This document shows, in pieces, positions 34,455 through 41,352 of a stretch of DNA of 64,000 nucleotides. Each line of letters starts with the position of its first letter. The first letter of the stretch is position 1. Below the pieces are notes generated by a model. That model was not told the DNA's origin, did no database searches, and worked only from the letters and a program-made list of their open reading frames with translations. Position numbers and translations under genes: made by a program. Origin of the DNA: Planctomycetota bacterium (GTDB lineage: Bacteria; Planctomycetota; Planctomycetia; Pirellulales; UBA1268); contig QWOQ01000005.1 of assembly GCA_003669585.1 (NCBI GenBank), positions 458,502-522,501 of the forward strand, given 5' to 3'.

Positions 34455-34946
34455 ATGACACTTTTTGAAGATTCCCATTTTAAGTGGAGAGAAACCTACT
34501 TCGTCGCCTTTGATCAAAAGCGACGGCCAACGGTTGAACAGATGCGATGCGCCCTCGAAGCTGTCGACGAACATTTTTTAATAGATCATGTCCACGGAGA
34601 CGCCGACGGGAGATTTGAATCACTCACATGCCGTTCACCGTCAGATCATGCGGCATTGGATATTTCATACGAGGATGACTCGGATATCCGTGAACAGAAT
34701 GCGCAAATCGCGATTGAGATTGGATCGACCATTTCCACCACAGAGGATCGGAAAAAAATTGATCTGCTTGGAAAGCTCGACGCTCGTTTCGACGTTCTGC
34801 ACTTCGAGGAGATCGAAGTAGAATCAGACGAAGAGGAATCGACCGATGAAATACTCGACCCAACTGCATTGATTGCGGTACTCGAGCAACTCGTAAAACT
34901 CACCGGGGGAATAGGCGTTGACCCCCAGTCCGGAACGATTGTCTGA
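34455..34946 (+). CDS. Acidic hypothetical protein
   Basis: 163-aa ORF with ordinary composition and an acidic C-terminal half (EEIEVESDEEESTDEILDP). No motif recognised. Confidence 0.55.
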   Translation: MTLFEDSHFKWRETYFVAFDQKRRPTVEQMRCALEAVDEHFLIDHVHGDADGRFESLTCRSPSDHAALDISYEDDSDIREQNAQIAIEIGSTISTTEDRKKIDLLGKLDARFDVLHFEEIEVESDEEESTDEILDPTALIAVLEQLVKLTGGIGVDPQSGTIV

Positions 34947-34978: not shown

Positions 34979-35251
34979 CTACCGCTTTGATTTTTTTTTG
35001 ACCACAGGGGCTTTGACCACAGGGGCTTTGACCACAGGGGCCGCCTTGACCGCAGGAGCCGCCTTGACCGCAGGAGCCGCCTTGACCGCAGGAGCCTTGA
35101 CCGCAGGAGCCTTGACCGCAGGGGCCTTTGCTTGAGTGAGTGGCTTGCCCGTCTTGGGTTTTGCAGCCGCGGCTTTTTTCTTTGCGCGGCCGAATGCCAT
35201 TTCCCAACCTTCTGAATATTCCTTGTTAGTTCCGACTCGAATAAGGGACAC
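34979..35251 (-). CDS. Small basic histone-H1-like repeat protein (Lys/Ala/Pro-rich)
   Basis: 90 codons from the GVG at 35249-35251... more exactly GTG at 35249-35251, or 73 from the ATG at 35198-35200. The product is SLIRVGTNKEYSEGWEMAFGRAKKKAAAAKPKTGKPLTQA, then KAPAV x3, KAAPAV x2, KAAPVV, KAPVV x2, then KKKSKR. The repeat frame is the only one of the three overlapping track ORFs with a non-repeat, protein-like N-terminus. Confidence 0.65.
   Translation of the reverse strand: MSLIRVGTNKEYSEGWEMAFGRAKKKAAAAKPKTGKPLTQAKAPAVKAPAVKAPAVKAAPAVKAAPAVKAAPVVKAPVVKAPVVKKKSKR
35000..35128. repeat. In-frame tandem repeat of eight 15/18-bp units (5-5-5-6-6-6-5-5 codons) inside the H1-like gene
   Basis: The + strand reads GACCACAGGGGCTTT x3, GACCGCAGGAGCCGCCTT x3-like, then GACCGCAGGAGCCTT x2-3. 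A T9 run follows directly (34991-34999, which is AAA AAA AAA = KKK on the coding strand). Confidence 0.9.
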
Positions 35252-36458: not shown

Positions 36459-39400
36459 TTATTTCAGATTCGTACGGGCCACACGAAAGCCGTTGAAGAG
36501 GTATTTATCCGTCGGCGCGACGAGGTTGTCCCGGTAGGCACATTGCACAAAATGCGGTAGGCCGTTGAATGAGCCGCCACGCAACACACGGCTATCGTTG
36601 TCGTTTATCGTTTCGGCATCCTCTTGGTCCACTTTTACGGCGGGATTATATTTATTCTGACACCACTCATAGACATTGCCGTGCATGTCAAACAATCCCA
36701 AATCATTTGCTTTTAACGTCCCCACAGGATGACTTTGACTATCTGCGTTACTGACAATCCAACCATACTTGCCGAGCACTTCTTCCGAGTCACCAAATGA
36801 AAAATCGGTGGCGGCATCAGCCCGACAGGCATATTCCCATTCCACTTCGGTCGGCAGACGATAGCCGGTTCTATGAATACAATCCGCAGGTATTGTCATG
36901 CCCTCTGTGTAGAGATCATCCTTATTCGGCTCGTAGCACCACTGCTCTTTCGGTAACCCTTCCTGTTCACTGAGCCAGTTGCAATACTCCACTGCGTCGT
37001 ACCAGCTCACACTTATTATCGGGCAGTCGCCGGTGGGAGCATAGGTTTTGTCGACATTGAAACCCTTCTTGAATTGGGAAAACTGATCCACCGTCACTTC
37101 TTTGGAGGCAATCGCGAAATCCCAGTCGATCCGAACCTGCCGCTTACTATCATTATCTCCAATAAGAAACTCACCCGGCTTGGTGATCACAACCATCGTT
37201 TGCCCTTGTCGATTGAGATACCACTGCCGTTTCTCCTGTATTTGTCCGGTCGCTAATTCCTTATCGATAGCCTTGGTTTTCTCCGACATTTGCCACTGAC
37301 TCAGCAGCCATTCGGCGGCTGAGTGTATCCCCGGATCAGGGTCATCCCGGTAAAGTTGCAACAACAGTTGCAACTGATTCAATCGCAGGTCAGCCGACAG
37401 ACTCCGTAAATCATATTCCCCCAAGCTCAACAAAATCGCTCTTTTTATGGAGACGTCTTGCTCCTTCTGCAGCCTAGCGAGGAAGACTTTTGGATCGACC
37501 CCCATCGGCTGACATCGGTCAATCAAAAAGCTTCGCAGCGTCGGGTCGGGGCTATGCTTGAACAGTAACCACACTTTCTCGGACTGCGTCATCAAAAGAA
37601 GAGCCGTTCCAATAAAGGCACTCTCTTTTGTCAATAGGATCCTACTATTTTTCGACATATCTGGCTCAGTCTTCTGGGTCAACTCAGTCAACCGGTTTTC
37701 CAGTCCGACATAAGCCTCGGGATTGTCGACGGCAAGTTTGCCATAGAGCATGGCAACTACACTTCGTTTCAATACGCTGCGTTTCTCATCCATCAGCATG
37801 TCAGCGAGCGGTGGAAACAAGTAGTCTCTCCCACCCAATAAAGCATCCAACCATTGGAGGACCATATATGACTTCTGCTCGACCAGAATCGCCGCCACGT
37901 CCCCACTGACTTTTTCCCAGCGAGGATCCGAGAGAGCAAACACCGACAACGCGCAGGCCGCACGAAGGCGCTGGTCTTCTTTATTTTCAGATTTTTCCAG
38001 CAATTTCCACAATCGCTCTATCAACTCAGCCTTGTGAGGGAACAACGCCTTTCGAATTACGTCCAATTCTTCTGGCTCGGCCTGAAGCAGTCGCTCATAC
38101 AGATACTCCACCTGTGCAGGATCCACCGGCAACAAGGCAAGGCTTGAGTGTAATTGCTTGCGAGGGTCGTTCTCATTCTTCGATTGGGCATAGTCCTCAT
38201 GTAAAAGAGGATCGACCCACCGGCGAAATGGCGACATGTGTGTGATGATCCCCGGCACGTCGGCGATCGTCGATACCTGCAAGCGATTTCGAAGCTGCAA
38301 ACTCTGCAAGCGACCATGGACTTCCCAACTTCCTAAGCCGATTACGATTAAAATCAAGGCAACGGCCATCCCCCGCATTGCATAATACTTTCTCGCTTTT
38401 CGCATCATCCTCCGCTGCGGCAGTGTCCGGCTCTTTTTTTTCGTGTACCACTTGATCTCGAACCACTGCAAGAGCGAGGGGAGTTGCCGATTTTCAGGAC
38501 GAGCATTCCAGACACCCGATCGATCCTCAAGCAACAATTCGGCACGACCACGATGAGTCTCTTTTTGCTTGCGAGTGAGCCAGTCTCGCAACGACGGCAC
38601 CAGAAAATCGTGCGTGAGTTGATAGTATTTTTTATCTGAAGCTCGCTCGCTTTTTTGATTCTGTTCGTCCACACCATCTGGGTCTGTCGGAGTAATGAGA
38701 CGAATTTCACTATCCAAAATATGAATCAGATCATCAAAATCTTTTGGTTGATCTGCATATCCAGACGCATGGAGCAACTCATCATGAGTCTTCATGTATC
38801 CTTTGATGAGTGTGCCAGACTCTGGAAGGAGCGCACGCAAAACGCTTCGAACTGCTTTCTGGTGATAGCGATGTTCTGGTGGAGCGGTTGGAGCACTGAA
38901 GGTTTCTTCCAGAAACGTAATATCAACACCCTCAGTTCCGCCAACTTCTTTCAGTACTGCAGGCGTCCAGTCTCGACTCTTCATTATCTCTGCAAAAAGA
39001 GCCAGTCGCACCGACATCACTTTTCCTCCTTGCGACAAACCCCGAATCGCCTGTTGAAGAAACTCTTTTTGTTCTTTCGTTTTTTCTCCAGCGTTTTCAG
39101 AAATTGTTCCGAATGCTCGTCCAAATGCAGTCAGCACTTTTGTGGCGTGATGCGTGTCAAAGAGCTCCACTGCCGATGAATTCTGCCCCTCTACAATTTT
39201 TTCTTCCAAGTCTTTCATGAATCTGGTTGCCGCCATCCAGAAATCATCCCGCACCATCACGATACATTGCACATTCCTGCCGTTGCAGTGTCGTAGAACC
39301 TGCACGAGTTCTGTGTTGTGCTCTTCTTTCCTGGCGTGCAGCCACTGCTCGAATTGATCTAAAACGATTAAAAGTTTTCTTCCCGATGGAACGTATTGAC

Positions 39401-39740
39401 CGCGGCGAAGTGCAGACAGCGACTCCTTGAGCGAGAGCGTCTCAGGCAAGGCTGCGCATCGCTTTCGCAGACCACCGAGAAGGCGACGCTCTGTTTGCTC
39501 TGCGGTCGCTTCGATATAGACAATCAGCACATCCTCAGACAAGCGAGGCAATAATCCAGCCTTGACGAGCGATGACTTGCCGCATCCTGAAGGTCCATAC
39601 ATTAAGCCCACTGAAAATGGGTTATTCAGATATGTTTTTTCAATGCGTGACTTCCAGAATCGAACGCTTTCTGGAAGGCCACCACGATCACGAGGACCAG
39701 GTAGCAGTTCTAAAAAAAAAGTCGGCGTCGTGAGCATCAA
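36459..39740 (-). CDS. STAND-like P-loop NTPase / single TM / HEAT-like repeats / FGE-sulfatase (SUMF1-like) domain protein. This is probably the frameshifted 3' part of the upstream kinase gene.
   Basis: 1093-aa ORF. Walker A is GPSGCGKSSLVKAGLLPRL (aa 49-67) and Walker B is KLLIVLDQFEQW (aa 122-133). A TM helix GMAVALILIVIGLGSW lies at aa ~457-472. A helical repeat region follows (DPRKQLHSSLALLP...DQRLRAACALSVFA...). The C-terminal FGE-type domain carries YRLPTEVEWEYACRA, GNVYEWCQN, RVLRGGSF and GFRVAR (aa ~845-1090, nt 36471-37208). The only start candidates (TTG 39740, ATG 39737) lie inside the kinase ORF. Confidence 0.8.
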   Translation of the reverse strand: MMLTTPTFFLELLPGPRDRGGLPESVRFWKSRIEKTYLNNPFSVGLMYGPSGCGKSSLVKAGLLPRLSEDVLIVYIEATAEQTERRLLGGLRKRCAALPETLSLKESLSALRRGQYVPSGRKLLIVLDQFEQWLHARKEEHNTELVQVLRHCNGRNVQCIVMVRDDFWMAATRFMKDLEEKIVEGQNSSAVELFDTHHATKVLTAFGRAFGTISENAGEKTKEQKEFLQQAIRGLSQGGKVMSVRLALFAEIMKSRDWTPAVLKEVGGTEGVDITFLEETFSAPTAPPEHRYHQKAVRSVLRALLPESGTLIKGYMKTHDELLHASGYADQPKDFDDLIHILDSEIRLITPTDPDGVDEQNQKSERASDKKYYQLTHDFLVPSLRDWLTRKQKETHRGRAELLLEDRSGVWNARPENRQLPSLLQWFEIKWYTKKKSRTLPQRRMMRKARKYYAMRGMAVALILIVIGLGSWEVHGRLQSLQLRNRLQVSTIADVPGIITHMSPFRRWVDPLLHEDYAQSKNENDPRKQLHSSLALLPVDPAQVEYLYERLLQAEPEELDVIRKALFPHKAELIERLWKLLEKSENKEDQRLRAACALSVFALSDPRWEKVSGDVAAILVEQKSYMVLQWLDALLGGRDYLFPPLADMLMDEKRSVLKRSVVAMLYGKLAVDNPEAYVGLENRLTELTQKTEPDMSKNSRILLTKESAFIGTALLLMTQSEKVWLLFKHSPDPTLRSFLIDRCQPMGVDPKVFLARLQKEQDVSIKRAILLSLGEYDLRSLSADLRLNQLQLLLQLYRDDPDPGIHSAAEWLLSQWQMSEKTKAIDKELATGQIQEKRQWYLNRQGQTMVVITKPGEFLIGDNDSKRQVRIDWDFAIASKEVTVDQFSQFKKGFNVDKTYAPTGDCPIISVSWYDAVEYCNWLSEQEGLPKEQWCYEPNKDDLYTEGMTIPADCIHRTGYRLPTEVEWEYACRADAATDFSFGDSEEVLGKYGWIVSNADSQSHPVGTLKANDLGLFDMHGNVYEWCQNKYNPAVKVDQEDAETINDNDSRVLRGGSFNGLPHFVQCAYRDNLVAPTDKYLFNGFRVARTNLK

Positions 39741-40800
39741 ATGAACGCAAGCCTTTTGGAACCACCTTGATCGGCTGACTGTCGGAATACGACGACGATG
39801 TTGGAGTGAGATCGCTTGAGATGATCGGTTTTGCTTGCGATTGATTTTGAAGATGCCCTGAGGTGGAGGGATTCGTTGAAAGAGACAGTTCTTCCAAGAT
39901 TAGTCGCAGATCGTCAGCCAAGTCGTGCGCCGTTGAATAACGCTCAGAAGTTCGTTTGGAAATCGCTTTGAGACAGATGCGATCCAGTTCTTTTGGAATG
40001 AGTTCATTGAGTTGGCGAGGTGGCCTCGGTTCGAACGTGCAAATCAATTCAAAAAGTTCAGGTATTGATTTTGATTCAAATGGTTTGCGCCCGGTAAGCA
40101 ATTCATAGAGAACAACTCCCAGACTAAAAATGTCTGATCGAGCATCCACTCGATGTCCTTCGCCACGAGCCTGTTCTGGCGACATATAGGAAGGAGTTCC
40201 GACAAAACACGACTCCTTCGAAACGTTCTGCTCTCGAAGTGCCAAGCCAAAATCGGCCACGAAGGGTTGATTGTTTTTGTCAAGCAAAATATTTGCAGGC
40301 TTAATGTCTCGATGCACCAAACCTTGTTTGTGAGCATAATGAAGTGCCTCAGCCACAGTCGTCACCAATTCAACCGCGTCTCGAACAGTCAATGATGATT
40401 GATTGCTTTTTATAGCAAGGTTGATTCCGTCAATATATTTTGAAACGATGAAGCATGGATATCGTTCCGTCGAACCAACATCGTGTACGGGAACAATATG
40501 AGGATGATCAAGATTGGCAACCATGCGAGCTTCTGCCATATACGCTTTTGCTTGATCCGCGTGAGCGATCAATTCAAAATGCGGAACTTTGATTGCTACA
40601 GGACGCTGCAGCTGATCGTCATAGGCAAGATAGACAAGCCCGTATATTCCCTTATCCAAAACCTTGTCGATTCGATAGCGACCAATCTGCTTGGGATGTT
40701 CGAGGAATTCGCCGGAAGACAAGTCAAGAAGCATCTGGAGCGACGAGGCTCCTTCAGAATTATTTTTATTCTGAGAGGTTGTTGCGTCTGGATCGTTCAT
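39688..40800 (-). CDS. Hanks-type Ser/Thr protein kinase domain protein, truncated by the frameshift at 39712-39720
   Basis: 370 aa from the ATG at 40800; the track ORF extends to a TTG at 40890. Kinase motifs: VAIKVPH (VAIK), HRDIKPANILL (HRD), DFGLA (DFG), SYMSPEQ (APE-like) and DIFSLGVVLYELLTG. The ORF ends ...KGLRSFDAHDADFFFRTATWSS*. Confidence 0.88.
   Translation of the reverse strand: MNDPDATTSQNKNNSEGASSLQMLLDLSSGEFLEHPKQIGRYRIDKVLDKGIYGLVYLAYDDQLQRPVAIKVPHFELIAHADQAKAYMAEARMVANLDHPHIVPVHDVGSTERYPCFIVSKYIDGINLAIKSNQSSLTVRDAVELVTTVAEALHYAHKQGLVHRDIKPANILLDKNNQPFVADFGLALREQNVSKESCFVGTPSYMSPEQARGEGHRVDARSDIFSLGVVLYELLTGRKPFESKSIPELFELICTFEPRPPRQLNELIPKELDRICLKAISKRTSERYSTAHDLADDLRLILEELSLSTNPSTSGHLQNQSQAKPIISSDLTPTSSSYSDSQPIKVVPKGLRSFDAHDADFFFRTATWSS
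39712..39720 (-). other. T9 (A9 on the + strand) homopolymer at the frameshift junction between the kinase ORF and the NTPase ORF
   Basis: The kinase frame reads GAC TTT TTT TTT AGA (D F F F R), and a stop follows 7 codons later. The NTPase frame reads ACT TTT TTT TTA GAA CTG (T F F L E L). Deleting one T fuses ...DAHDADFF to LELLPGPRDRGGLPESVRFWK. Confidence 0.85.
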
Positions 40801-40953
40801 TGATCCGCTCCTATGAATGACGCAAAATTTTAAGTTGGGGTTTTCCAGCCCACAAGAAGGAGCCCTCTGCGGTTCCGGAGACACAGCCAAAGCGAAACCA
40901 CGAGCGGTCTTTCAGCCACAGCCTCTTTCGTTTTGGCTGCTTTTCAGTCTCTT

Positions 40954-41352
40954 TTAAAATTTCTTCTGACCAGATTTGCTCAAAACGCATGGTTTACCAT
41001 CCATCGAGAGTGTAAAAGGGATGCAATCCTGCGGTATTGATAGCGCCCGTACGCGTAGGTCAGCCATACCCAGCCATACGATCCGCTCTACCTGACGGGG
41101 CTCATCGTTCGGAACATGCTGTGTTCGTCGCTGCGTGTTCCGTGAGTGCCCCAACACATTGCATGTTCGGCGTTCGCTCAAGTGATCACGGCCGAGAGCA
41201 GTTCTTGTCTGCTCGACCGCGTATTGCCCCTTCGCCGGGCTCAGAACTTTCCCGAAGCGGCCTCCTGAAACGCCAGAGTCGAGTTCGACGTCGGCCAACC
41301 ACCGCTTGAGTCGGTTGTTCTTCTCGATATCCTTCAGCCGCTTGGCCGGGCT
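40954..41352 (-). mobile_element. Decayed IS3-family transposase remnant (OrfA C-terminus / OrfB N-terminus only; no DDE domain)
   Basis: The minus-strand frame reads AKRLKDIEKNNRLKRWLADVELD...LSPAKGQYAVEQTRTALGRDHLSERRTCNVLGHSRNTQRRTQHVPNDEPRQVERIV. This matches the IS3/IS407-group pattern (A)KRLKxLExENxxLKxLxADxxLD...LxPAxRRxxV...VSERRACRxxGxxRSxxRY...DDxxLRxRI. Upstream to ~41470, out-of-frame traces (DDATFR, EYGGL) and stops are visible. The catalytic domain is absent. Confidence 0.65.

Follow-up and report, generated by a model that had tools for sequence, protein, structure and literature searches.

A T9 allele divides a single-chain kinase–nSTAND1–FGE-sulfatase gene in a near-clonal planctomycete lineage

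We describe a disrupted allele of a gene of the Pkinase–nSTAND1–FGE-sulfatase family in a 64,000-nucleotide (nt) stretch of DNA from a Planctomycetota bacterium (GenBank assembly GCA_003669585.1, contig QWOQ01000005.1, positions 458,502 to 522,501), the whole of which we call the window. On the minus strand a Ser/Thr kinase open reading frame (ORF) and a downstream ORF with STAND-NTPase and FGE domains meet, one base out of phase, in a run of nine T (T9; A9 on the plus strand), and the sequence there is as a preliminary description of it had stated. The T9 allele is real, the ancestral gene was fused and carried eight T (T8), and the difference in tract length is confined to one shallow clade. 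Homopolymer insertions arise through replication slippage, and we hold it to be highly probable that the allele is a recent, lineage-specific T8-to-T9 insertion in a coding homopolymer, most likely made in this way, in a near-clonal freshwater planctomycete lineage.

The tract stands on the minus strand in the context GAT GCT CAC GAC GCC GAC TTTTTTTTT AGA ACT GCT ACC TGG TCC TCG TGA. The kinase ORF ends in DAHDADFFFRTATWSS and the stop codon (over a longer stretch, KGLRSFDAHDADFFFRTATWSS), its last eight residues (FRTATWSS) being the out-of-frame reading past T9, and the downstream ORF reads TTPTFFLELLPGPRDRGGLPESVRFWK across the same tract. An alternative start for the kinase, a TTG at 40890, extends its ORF to 400 codons (39688-40890, minus strand). 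With one T deleted, the reading frame stays open for 1476 codons from this TTG or 1446 codons from the ATG at 40800; these lengths and the 53-nt overlap of the two ORFs, both given in the preliminary description, were confirmed by recomputation, and the overlap is a by-product of the frameshift with no coupled stop/start junction. Under standard decoding the junction peptide of the T9 allele is SFDAHDADFFFR, and that of a rescued or T8 product is SFDAHDADFFLELLPGPR. The claim that the downstream ORF has no start outside the kinase tail was right in placing the start within the tail, but an ATG does exist there, at 39737, 50 nt ahead of the kinase stop; translation from it begins MLTTPTFFLELL, and public annotation takes it as the start of a 1092-residue protein. 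The same ATG is present in T8 alleles, where it is out of frame, and it is therefore fortuitous. The T9 tract is the sole run of nine or more within any long ORF of the window.

The family to which the two halves belong shows that the ancestral gene was a single ORF encoding a transmembrane protein of about 1446 residues. A protein search with the repaired 1446-residue query returned more than 100 homologues of about 1390-1600 residues, from Planctomycetia, Gemmataceae and Thermoguttaceae, at 54-63% identity and 97-100% coverage, and all of them carry PF00069, PF20703 and PF03781 on one chain. Because 97-100% of its length aligns to these single-chain proteins, the repaired frame is not a chance pairing of neighbouring ORFs. 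A scan of one genome per species supplied a further 80 loci from diverse Planctomycetota (taken from at least 556, and including the Limnoglobus roseus PX52 chromosome), with a best identity of 68% among the matches listed. The motif FDAHDADFFLELLPG, with minor substitutions at most, lies within one continuous ORF at 77 of the 80; that ORF typically extends at least about 340 codons upstream, less at contig ends and in interrupted frames, and up to about 1200 codons downstream. T runs at the motif in these 77 loci reach two to seven at their longest and never eight or nine. Placement of the junction in the family rests on this conserved motif and not on the Pfam nSTAND1 boundary; the Pfam match begins at profile position 33, about 30 residues past the junction. 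Since the motif lies within the ORF at these loci, the frameshift cuts a short motif that is among the best conserved in the family, and falls neither at a domain linker nor at a gene boundary. The window allele has the kinase, nSTAND1 and FGE domains and lacks the uninterrupted chain through FDAHDADFFLELLPG; it is a disrupted allele of a family member. The preliminary description's view of one gene interrupted at a homopolymer is thus borne out by single-chain homologues and by the intact T8 relatives described below, and the two separately initiated genes that it had considered for the orthologues gave way to one ORF at 77 of 80 loci.

Homopolymers are classic error sites, and a sequencing or assembly error, with a true T8 genome and an intact gene, was among the explanations first offered. 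We now regard it as extremely improbable. The 370-residue kinase with its frameshifted tail is NCBI RLS32746.1 ('MAG: serine/threonine protein kinase [Planctomycetota bacterium]', MAG standing for metagenome-assembled genome), the exact protein is encoded on 23 contigs, and the 1092-residue product from the ATG at 39737 is likewise present in public collections. Ten of the 23 contigs (L002-L011) were examined at the DNA level; they derive from MEGAHIT-style k141 contigs (two ENA analyses), METAG-scaffold assemblies, three Logan run assemblies and GCA_947470275.1, and over the gene their identity to the window is 99.66-100%. All ten carry T9, across different samples, different studies and three kinds of assembler; the METAG-scaffold samples with T9 bear two study codes (MEHR18-2 and KAVA23-1). 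Read sets underlying the T9 contigs include SAMN08331093, SAMN08331109, SAMEA14109823, SAMEA14109779, ERR12084900, ERR12084906 and ERR12084910, and SAMEA9560998, SAMEA9561074 and SAMEA9561016 underlie contigs with T8. The same METAG-scaffold pipeline, which is of SPAdes type, gives T8 for three sister strains (L001, L012 and L013), and L005 (GCA_947470275.1) retains T9 on a background 11 single-nucleotide polymorphisms (SNPs) away from the window. In the related L001 a scaffold gap lies some 25 nt 5' of the run, a point in favor of an assembly fault; the nature of the gap is clear from the sequence of that scaffold, which we consider next.

Five relatives all carry T8, namely L001 (99.2% DNA identity to the window), L012 (98.4% over the gene and 99.0% over the 8.7-kilobase (kb) locus), L013 (97.8%), and L014 and L015 (both about 95.5%), the last two from a pattern scan of JGI metagenome contigs permitting T7 to T11. 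The scoring of orthologues for T8 against T9 that had been proposed at the outset therefore returned T8 in these five. The whole-gene frame is intact in three of the five: L012 and L013, whose proteins P0134 (1450 residues) and P0131 (1485 residues) are both full-length, and L001 once its gap is collapsed. L001 reads GAC-T8-AGA, and its protein P0001, the top protein match (99% identity, 1101 residues), begins MVPKGLRSFDAHDADFFLELLPGP, which is the repaired reading. Positions 5875-5974 of L001 (corresponding to window positions ~39737-39791) are a gap of 100 N flanked by a 55-nt duplicated overlap; with the overlap collapsed, an intact 1446-codon ORF results. It is because of this gap that P0001 was called as a truncated protein from a GTG, and the apparent truncation resembles the split but is an artefact of scaffolding. 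The 90%-identity cluster of P0001 mixes full-length proteins of 1450 and 1485 residues, the 370-residue kinase, C-terminal fragments and an unrelated 59-residue ORF, and its '63 member' count is accordingly not a count of 63 equivalent proteins.

Within the shared 8.7 kb, the T tract is the sole homopolymer that varies in length between strains. Seven other homopolymers of at least seven have equal lengths at every locus with matchable flanks, and this concordance further argues against assembly error. The only other indel relative to L012 is an in-frame 12-nt insertion in a Ser/Thr/Pro-rich linker. This insertion is present in both L012 and L013, at window position ~39807 (...DLTPPITPTSSPYSD versus ...DLTPTSSSYSD), and the linker, which runs from the kinase to the junction motif, varies more than any other part of the gene.

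The preliminary description had also proposed a genuine inactivating or phase-variable indel. The first part stands, as the indel is genuine; we consider it very unlikely that the locus is a contingency locus that switches reversibly and frequently within populations, with T8 as an ON state that makes the full receptor and T9 as an OFF or kinase-only state. Both lengths do occur among strains 98-99% identical, tracts of eight or nine T are mutable, and tract heterogeneity in bacterial populations has been noted (PMC1088944). However, tract length follows the SNP haplotype perfectly: T9 is limited to sequences at least 99.7% identical to the window, the five more distant relatives have T8, and T8 is stable over at least 4.5% nucleotide divergence. 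The contigs continue through the tract unbroken. Among approximately 15 billion proteins, the window haplotype with T8 (1446 residues), T7 (362 residues, with an immediate TAG) or T10 (363 residues) found no exact match, compared with 23 contigs for T9. The absence of these forms from that collection, together with the co-segregation of tract length with SNPs, disfavors frequent switching; low-level read heterogeneity or low-frequency switching may occur at the tract.

The intact protein looks like a one-pass receptor, with the kinase and NTPase inside the cell and the repeats and FGE/lectin fold outside. In our favored account, replication slippage would have lengthened T8 to T9 in an ancestral fused gene whose product comprised a cytoplasmic Ser/Thr kinase, an nSTAND1 NTPase, one transmembrane (TM) helix, and outward-facing repeats and an FGE-sulfatase (C-type-lectin-fold) domain. 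The extra T ends the kinase eight codons past the run and leaves the remaining ~1090 codons in the +1 frame. Standard decoding would then yield a free, soluble 41-kDa kinase of 370 residues, cut from the NTPase, the membrane anchor and the sensor, and any product started at the ATG at 39737 would carry MLTTPTFF in place of the conserved GLRSFDAHDADFF segment. With the kinase uncoupled and this segment missing, receptor function would be lost or strongly reduced. Slippage of RNA polymerase may restore some full-length protein from transcripts with 8 or 11 U; such leakiness is plausible, by analogy with other bacteria, and would be incidental rather than evolved. The frameshift itself is ordinary in kind, a known type of event in one member of a redundant family.

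An adaptive gene fission, in which the kinase and the NTPase-sensor would be made as two separately translated proteins, the second from the ATG at 39737, would find some encouragement in the position of that in-frame ATG, which lies close enough ahead of the kinase stop to permit translational coupling, and in the lack of further lesions in either ORF. It is nonetheless very improbable: the ATG is fortuitous, the near-invariant GLRSFDAHDADFF segment would become MLTTPTFF, and the split is too young for selection to show. The top 120 homologues, moreover, all keep the fused N-terminal kinase, with the exception of the scaffold-gap artefact P0001.

The preliminary description had further raised expression of the fusion by recoding. 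Reaching the downstream frame needs a +1 shift by the ribosome, or transcripts with 8 or 11 U. As an evolved arrangement, T9 would be a programmed site of transcriptional slippage or +1 ribosomal frameshifting that sets the ratio of kinase-only to full-length product, like Shigella mxiE and Citrobacter tssM. Nine T is a proven slippage length (PMC1088944), a frameshift-interrupted gene can require both products (PMC4256274), and the allele is apparently fixed with its downstream frame intact. Yet T9 and the two-ORF layout occur in one near-clonal lineage only, the relatives that are 95-99% identical carry T8 within a single ORF, and the 77 distant loci have T runs of two to seven. A 150-nt segment covering the run and what lies downstream of it contains no significant RNA structure (z = -1.37 versus shuffles), and no Shine-Dalgarno-like stimulator is evident in the sequence upstream of the run. 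In the kinase frame, the AGA codon after the run is not rare (7.9 per 1000 codons, ~11% of Arg codons) and is common enough for a 'hungry codon' +1 ribosomal frameshift to be rejected. We therefore judge an evolved recoding site to be highly improbable.

Several considerations weigh against the T9 allele being simply a recent insertion that damaged the gene. Some of the 23 contigs may share overlapping read sets, and tract lengths were read from assembled contigs, so that more than one length may occur within a sample. The allele is apparently fixed over samples of several study codes, a pattern that fits neutrality, hitch-hiking and selection equally well. Neither a second stop nor a further frameshift interrupts the 1092 codons of the downstream frame, which, together with the ATG at 39737, leaves room for both halves still being in use. 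Transcriptional slippage in Planctomycetota, for its part, is an extrapolation from other bacteria. With regard to the downstream frame, the T9 lineage has eight specific substitutions (five non-synonymous and three synonymous), in ratios that, over these few sites, resemble T8-versus-T8 comparisons; with eight substitutions only, the undamaged frame is uninformative either way.

Within the T9 group, the approximately 11 SNPs of L005 cluster in a tract of ~190 nt (codons 712-773 of the repaired gene, window positions ~38480-38665), with seven synonymous and three non-synonymous codon changes, some common to the T8 strain L012 and some unique. This cluster looks like a short homologous-recombination tract that left the frameshift 1 kb upstream unrepaired.

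Table 1. Positions of the divided gene, its domains and its junction in the window.
Feature	Position	Strand	Basis or remark
Ser/Thr kinase ORF, 370 residues from ATG	39688-40800	-	Pkinase PF00069, E 8.5e-46, residues 42-292 (~39925-40677)
Downstream ORF, 1092 residues from ATG 39737 or 1093 from TTG 39740	36459-39737 (to 39740)	-	Translation, Pfam
T9 homopolymer (A9 on the plus strand)	39712-39720	-	Site of one-base insertion; ancestral T8 = TTT TTT TTA (Phe-Phe-Leu)
Overlap of kinase and downstream frames, 53 nt	39688-39740	-	ORF coordinates and translations
Junction motif FDAHDADFF/LELLPG, near-invariant in the family	39696-39741	-	Broken by the extra T; kinase frame reads FDAHDADFFFRTATW
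nSTAND1 NTPase PF20703	~38556-39605	-	Pfam E 8.6e-18; Walker A GPSGCGKS
Single predicted TM helix, YYAMRGMAVALILIVIGLGSW	38325-38387	-	Strongly hydrophobic segment between NTPase and C-terminal part
Helical-repeat region	within downstream ORF 36459-39737	-	Listed between TM helix and FGE domain
FGE-sulfatase / C-type-lectin-fold domain PF03781, C-terminal	~36474-37193	-	Pfam E 1.5e-41

The annotated neighbours of the gene are housekeeping in nature (sigma-70 factor, thioredoxin, P5C reductase, GlnD and IMPDH). No reverse transcriptase was found among the long ORFs scanned, and no diversity-generating retroelement or defence island was noticed adjoining the gene. In the defence-system scan, PADLOC gave a generic kinase domain match only. 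Naming by PADLOC and NCBIfam was set aside, as these recovered generic kinase and FGE domains only, with all NCBIfam scores under the cut-offs, and no system was assigned. The window has two more pairs of ORFs that overlap on one strand (25620/26996 and 49065/49876); these proved to be unrelated genes and not further split genes. A 59-residue ORF (P0123, MRFEQIWSEEILKE...) at ~40811-40990 on the minus strand, 5' of the kinase ATG, is called on 44 contigs by public gene finders; it overlaps the TTG-extended N-terminus of the kinase in another frame, has no Pfam match and probably represents a false gene call within the 5' leader. Apart from the junction tract, the window has a single 9-mer homopolymer, which is a T9 at 34991-34999 on the plus strand, ~45 nt 3' of the stop of a 163-residue ORF (34455-34946, plus strand), and is probably intergenic or terminator-associated. 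The alignment of the window to L012 breaks near this run, at ~35042-35124, which suggests a variable intergenic stretch.

The family is highly paralogous, with at least 556 loci among species representatives, including five copies in the Gemmataceae MAG DATGZX01 (L038, L046, L049, L053 and L071) and four in the Pirellula MAG JANMHA01. Some family-bearing contigs are labelled 'Candidatus Kuenenia' or 'Alcaligenaceae', and at least the latter looks like a binning or labelling error. A number of the distant loci (L019, L022, L041, L055, L064, L083 and others) have short frames around the motif, of for example 507-727 codons in total; some of these are set by contig ends, and others may hold interruptions of their own elsewhere.

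For annotation, our results mean that the two ORFs deposited separately (for example RLS32746.1) are the two parts of a single kinase–nSTAND1–FGE gene, and should be flagged as a frameshifted allele and not as a stand-alone kinase beside an orphan NTPase/FGE protein. For method, they illustrate that public metagenome assemblies can tell real homopolymer alleles from artefacts without recourse to reads. Biologically the case is modest: one of a very large set of paralogues has recently undergone loss or attenuation.

We know of no member of the planctomycete Pkinase–nSTAND1–FGE family with a tested function. These proteins have the three domains of the window gene in the same order as well as its junction motif, and are 54-63% identical to it along their full length, whereas the window polypeptide is interrupted. 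In Kaur et al. 2021 (PMC8195603) and Doré et al. 2024 (PMC10907252), the combination of nSTAND1 with a C-terminal FGE/CLec domain is discussed as a putative conflict or 'antigen-sensor' system. The poly-G/C contingency loci of Campylobacter and Neisseria likewise toggle a frame by a change of length in a coding homopolymer; the window tract differs from them in that its length is stable within clades, with no length variation seen within a haplotype. A +1 frameshift of the prfB or antizyme type depends on a slippery P-site codon followed by a slow (rare or stop) A-site codon and on a stimulator; neither a slow codon nor a stimulator was found at the window tract.

A similar layout is offered by two genes in which overlapping same-strand ORFs also meet at an A/T homopolymer, with a short product from the templated transcript and a long fusion from slipped transcripts. 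Citrobacter rodentium tssM1 has an A11 run rescued by transcriptional slippage (PMC4256274), and in Shigella mxiE, following the account of Penno et al. 2005 given in PMC1088944, the long product depends on slippage at a run of U. In these genes the arrangement is functionally required, and that of tssM occurs also in Yersinia pseudotuberculosis, whereas the window split belongs to one shallow lineage with relatives in frame.

The nearest parallel lies with the 'pseudo pseudogenes', in which a frameshift turns a non-slippery 8-mer into a slippery 9-mer and some normal product remains (Baranov, Hammer, Zhou, Gesteland & Atkins 2005, Genome Biol 6:R25; PMC1088944). Selection against A/T runs, taken as a sign of transcriptional slippage, is evident at nine nt in a large share of the bacterial genomes analysed (PMC1088944). 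As in these cases, the window gene has passed from an 8-mer to a 9-mer by one base, its ORF is split, its homologues have a single ORF and its close relatives keep the 8-mer: the 9-run with its frameshift is shared by the window and L002-L011, and L001 and L012-L015 have T8. The frame would be regained in transcripts that have lost one U or gained two. The present case differs in that its run is T in the sense strand, with rescue needing a change of -1 or +2 nt, that its host is an uncultured planctomycete and that slippage and a full-length product are deduced by analogy. It is unlikely, in our estimation, that T9 is a selected allele of this kind, in which slippage on U9 would produce, in fixed proportion, soluble kinase that lacks the sensor and a smaller amount of full-length transmembrane kinase–STAND–lectin receptor, and this retuned dosage would have swept through a natural freshwater planctomycete population; if it were, it would be a wild, non-pathogen case of slippage-tuned expression of a STAND-type sensor. 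Should slippage rescue hold in itself, the allele would represent a natural, population-fixed 8-to-9 'pseudo-pseudogene' in an environmental bacterium.

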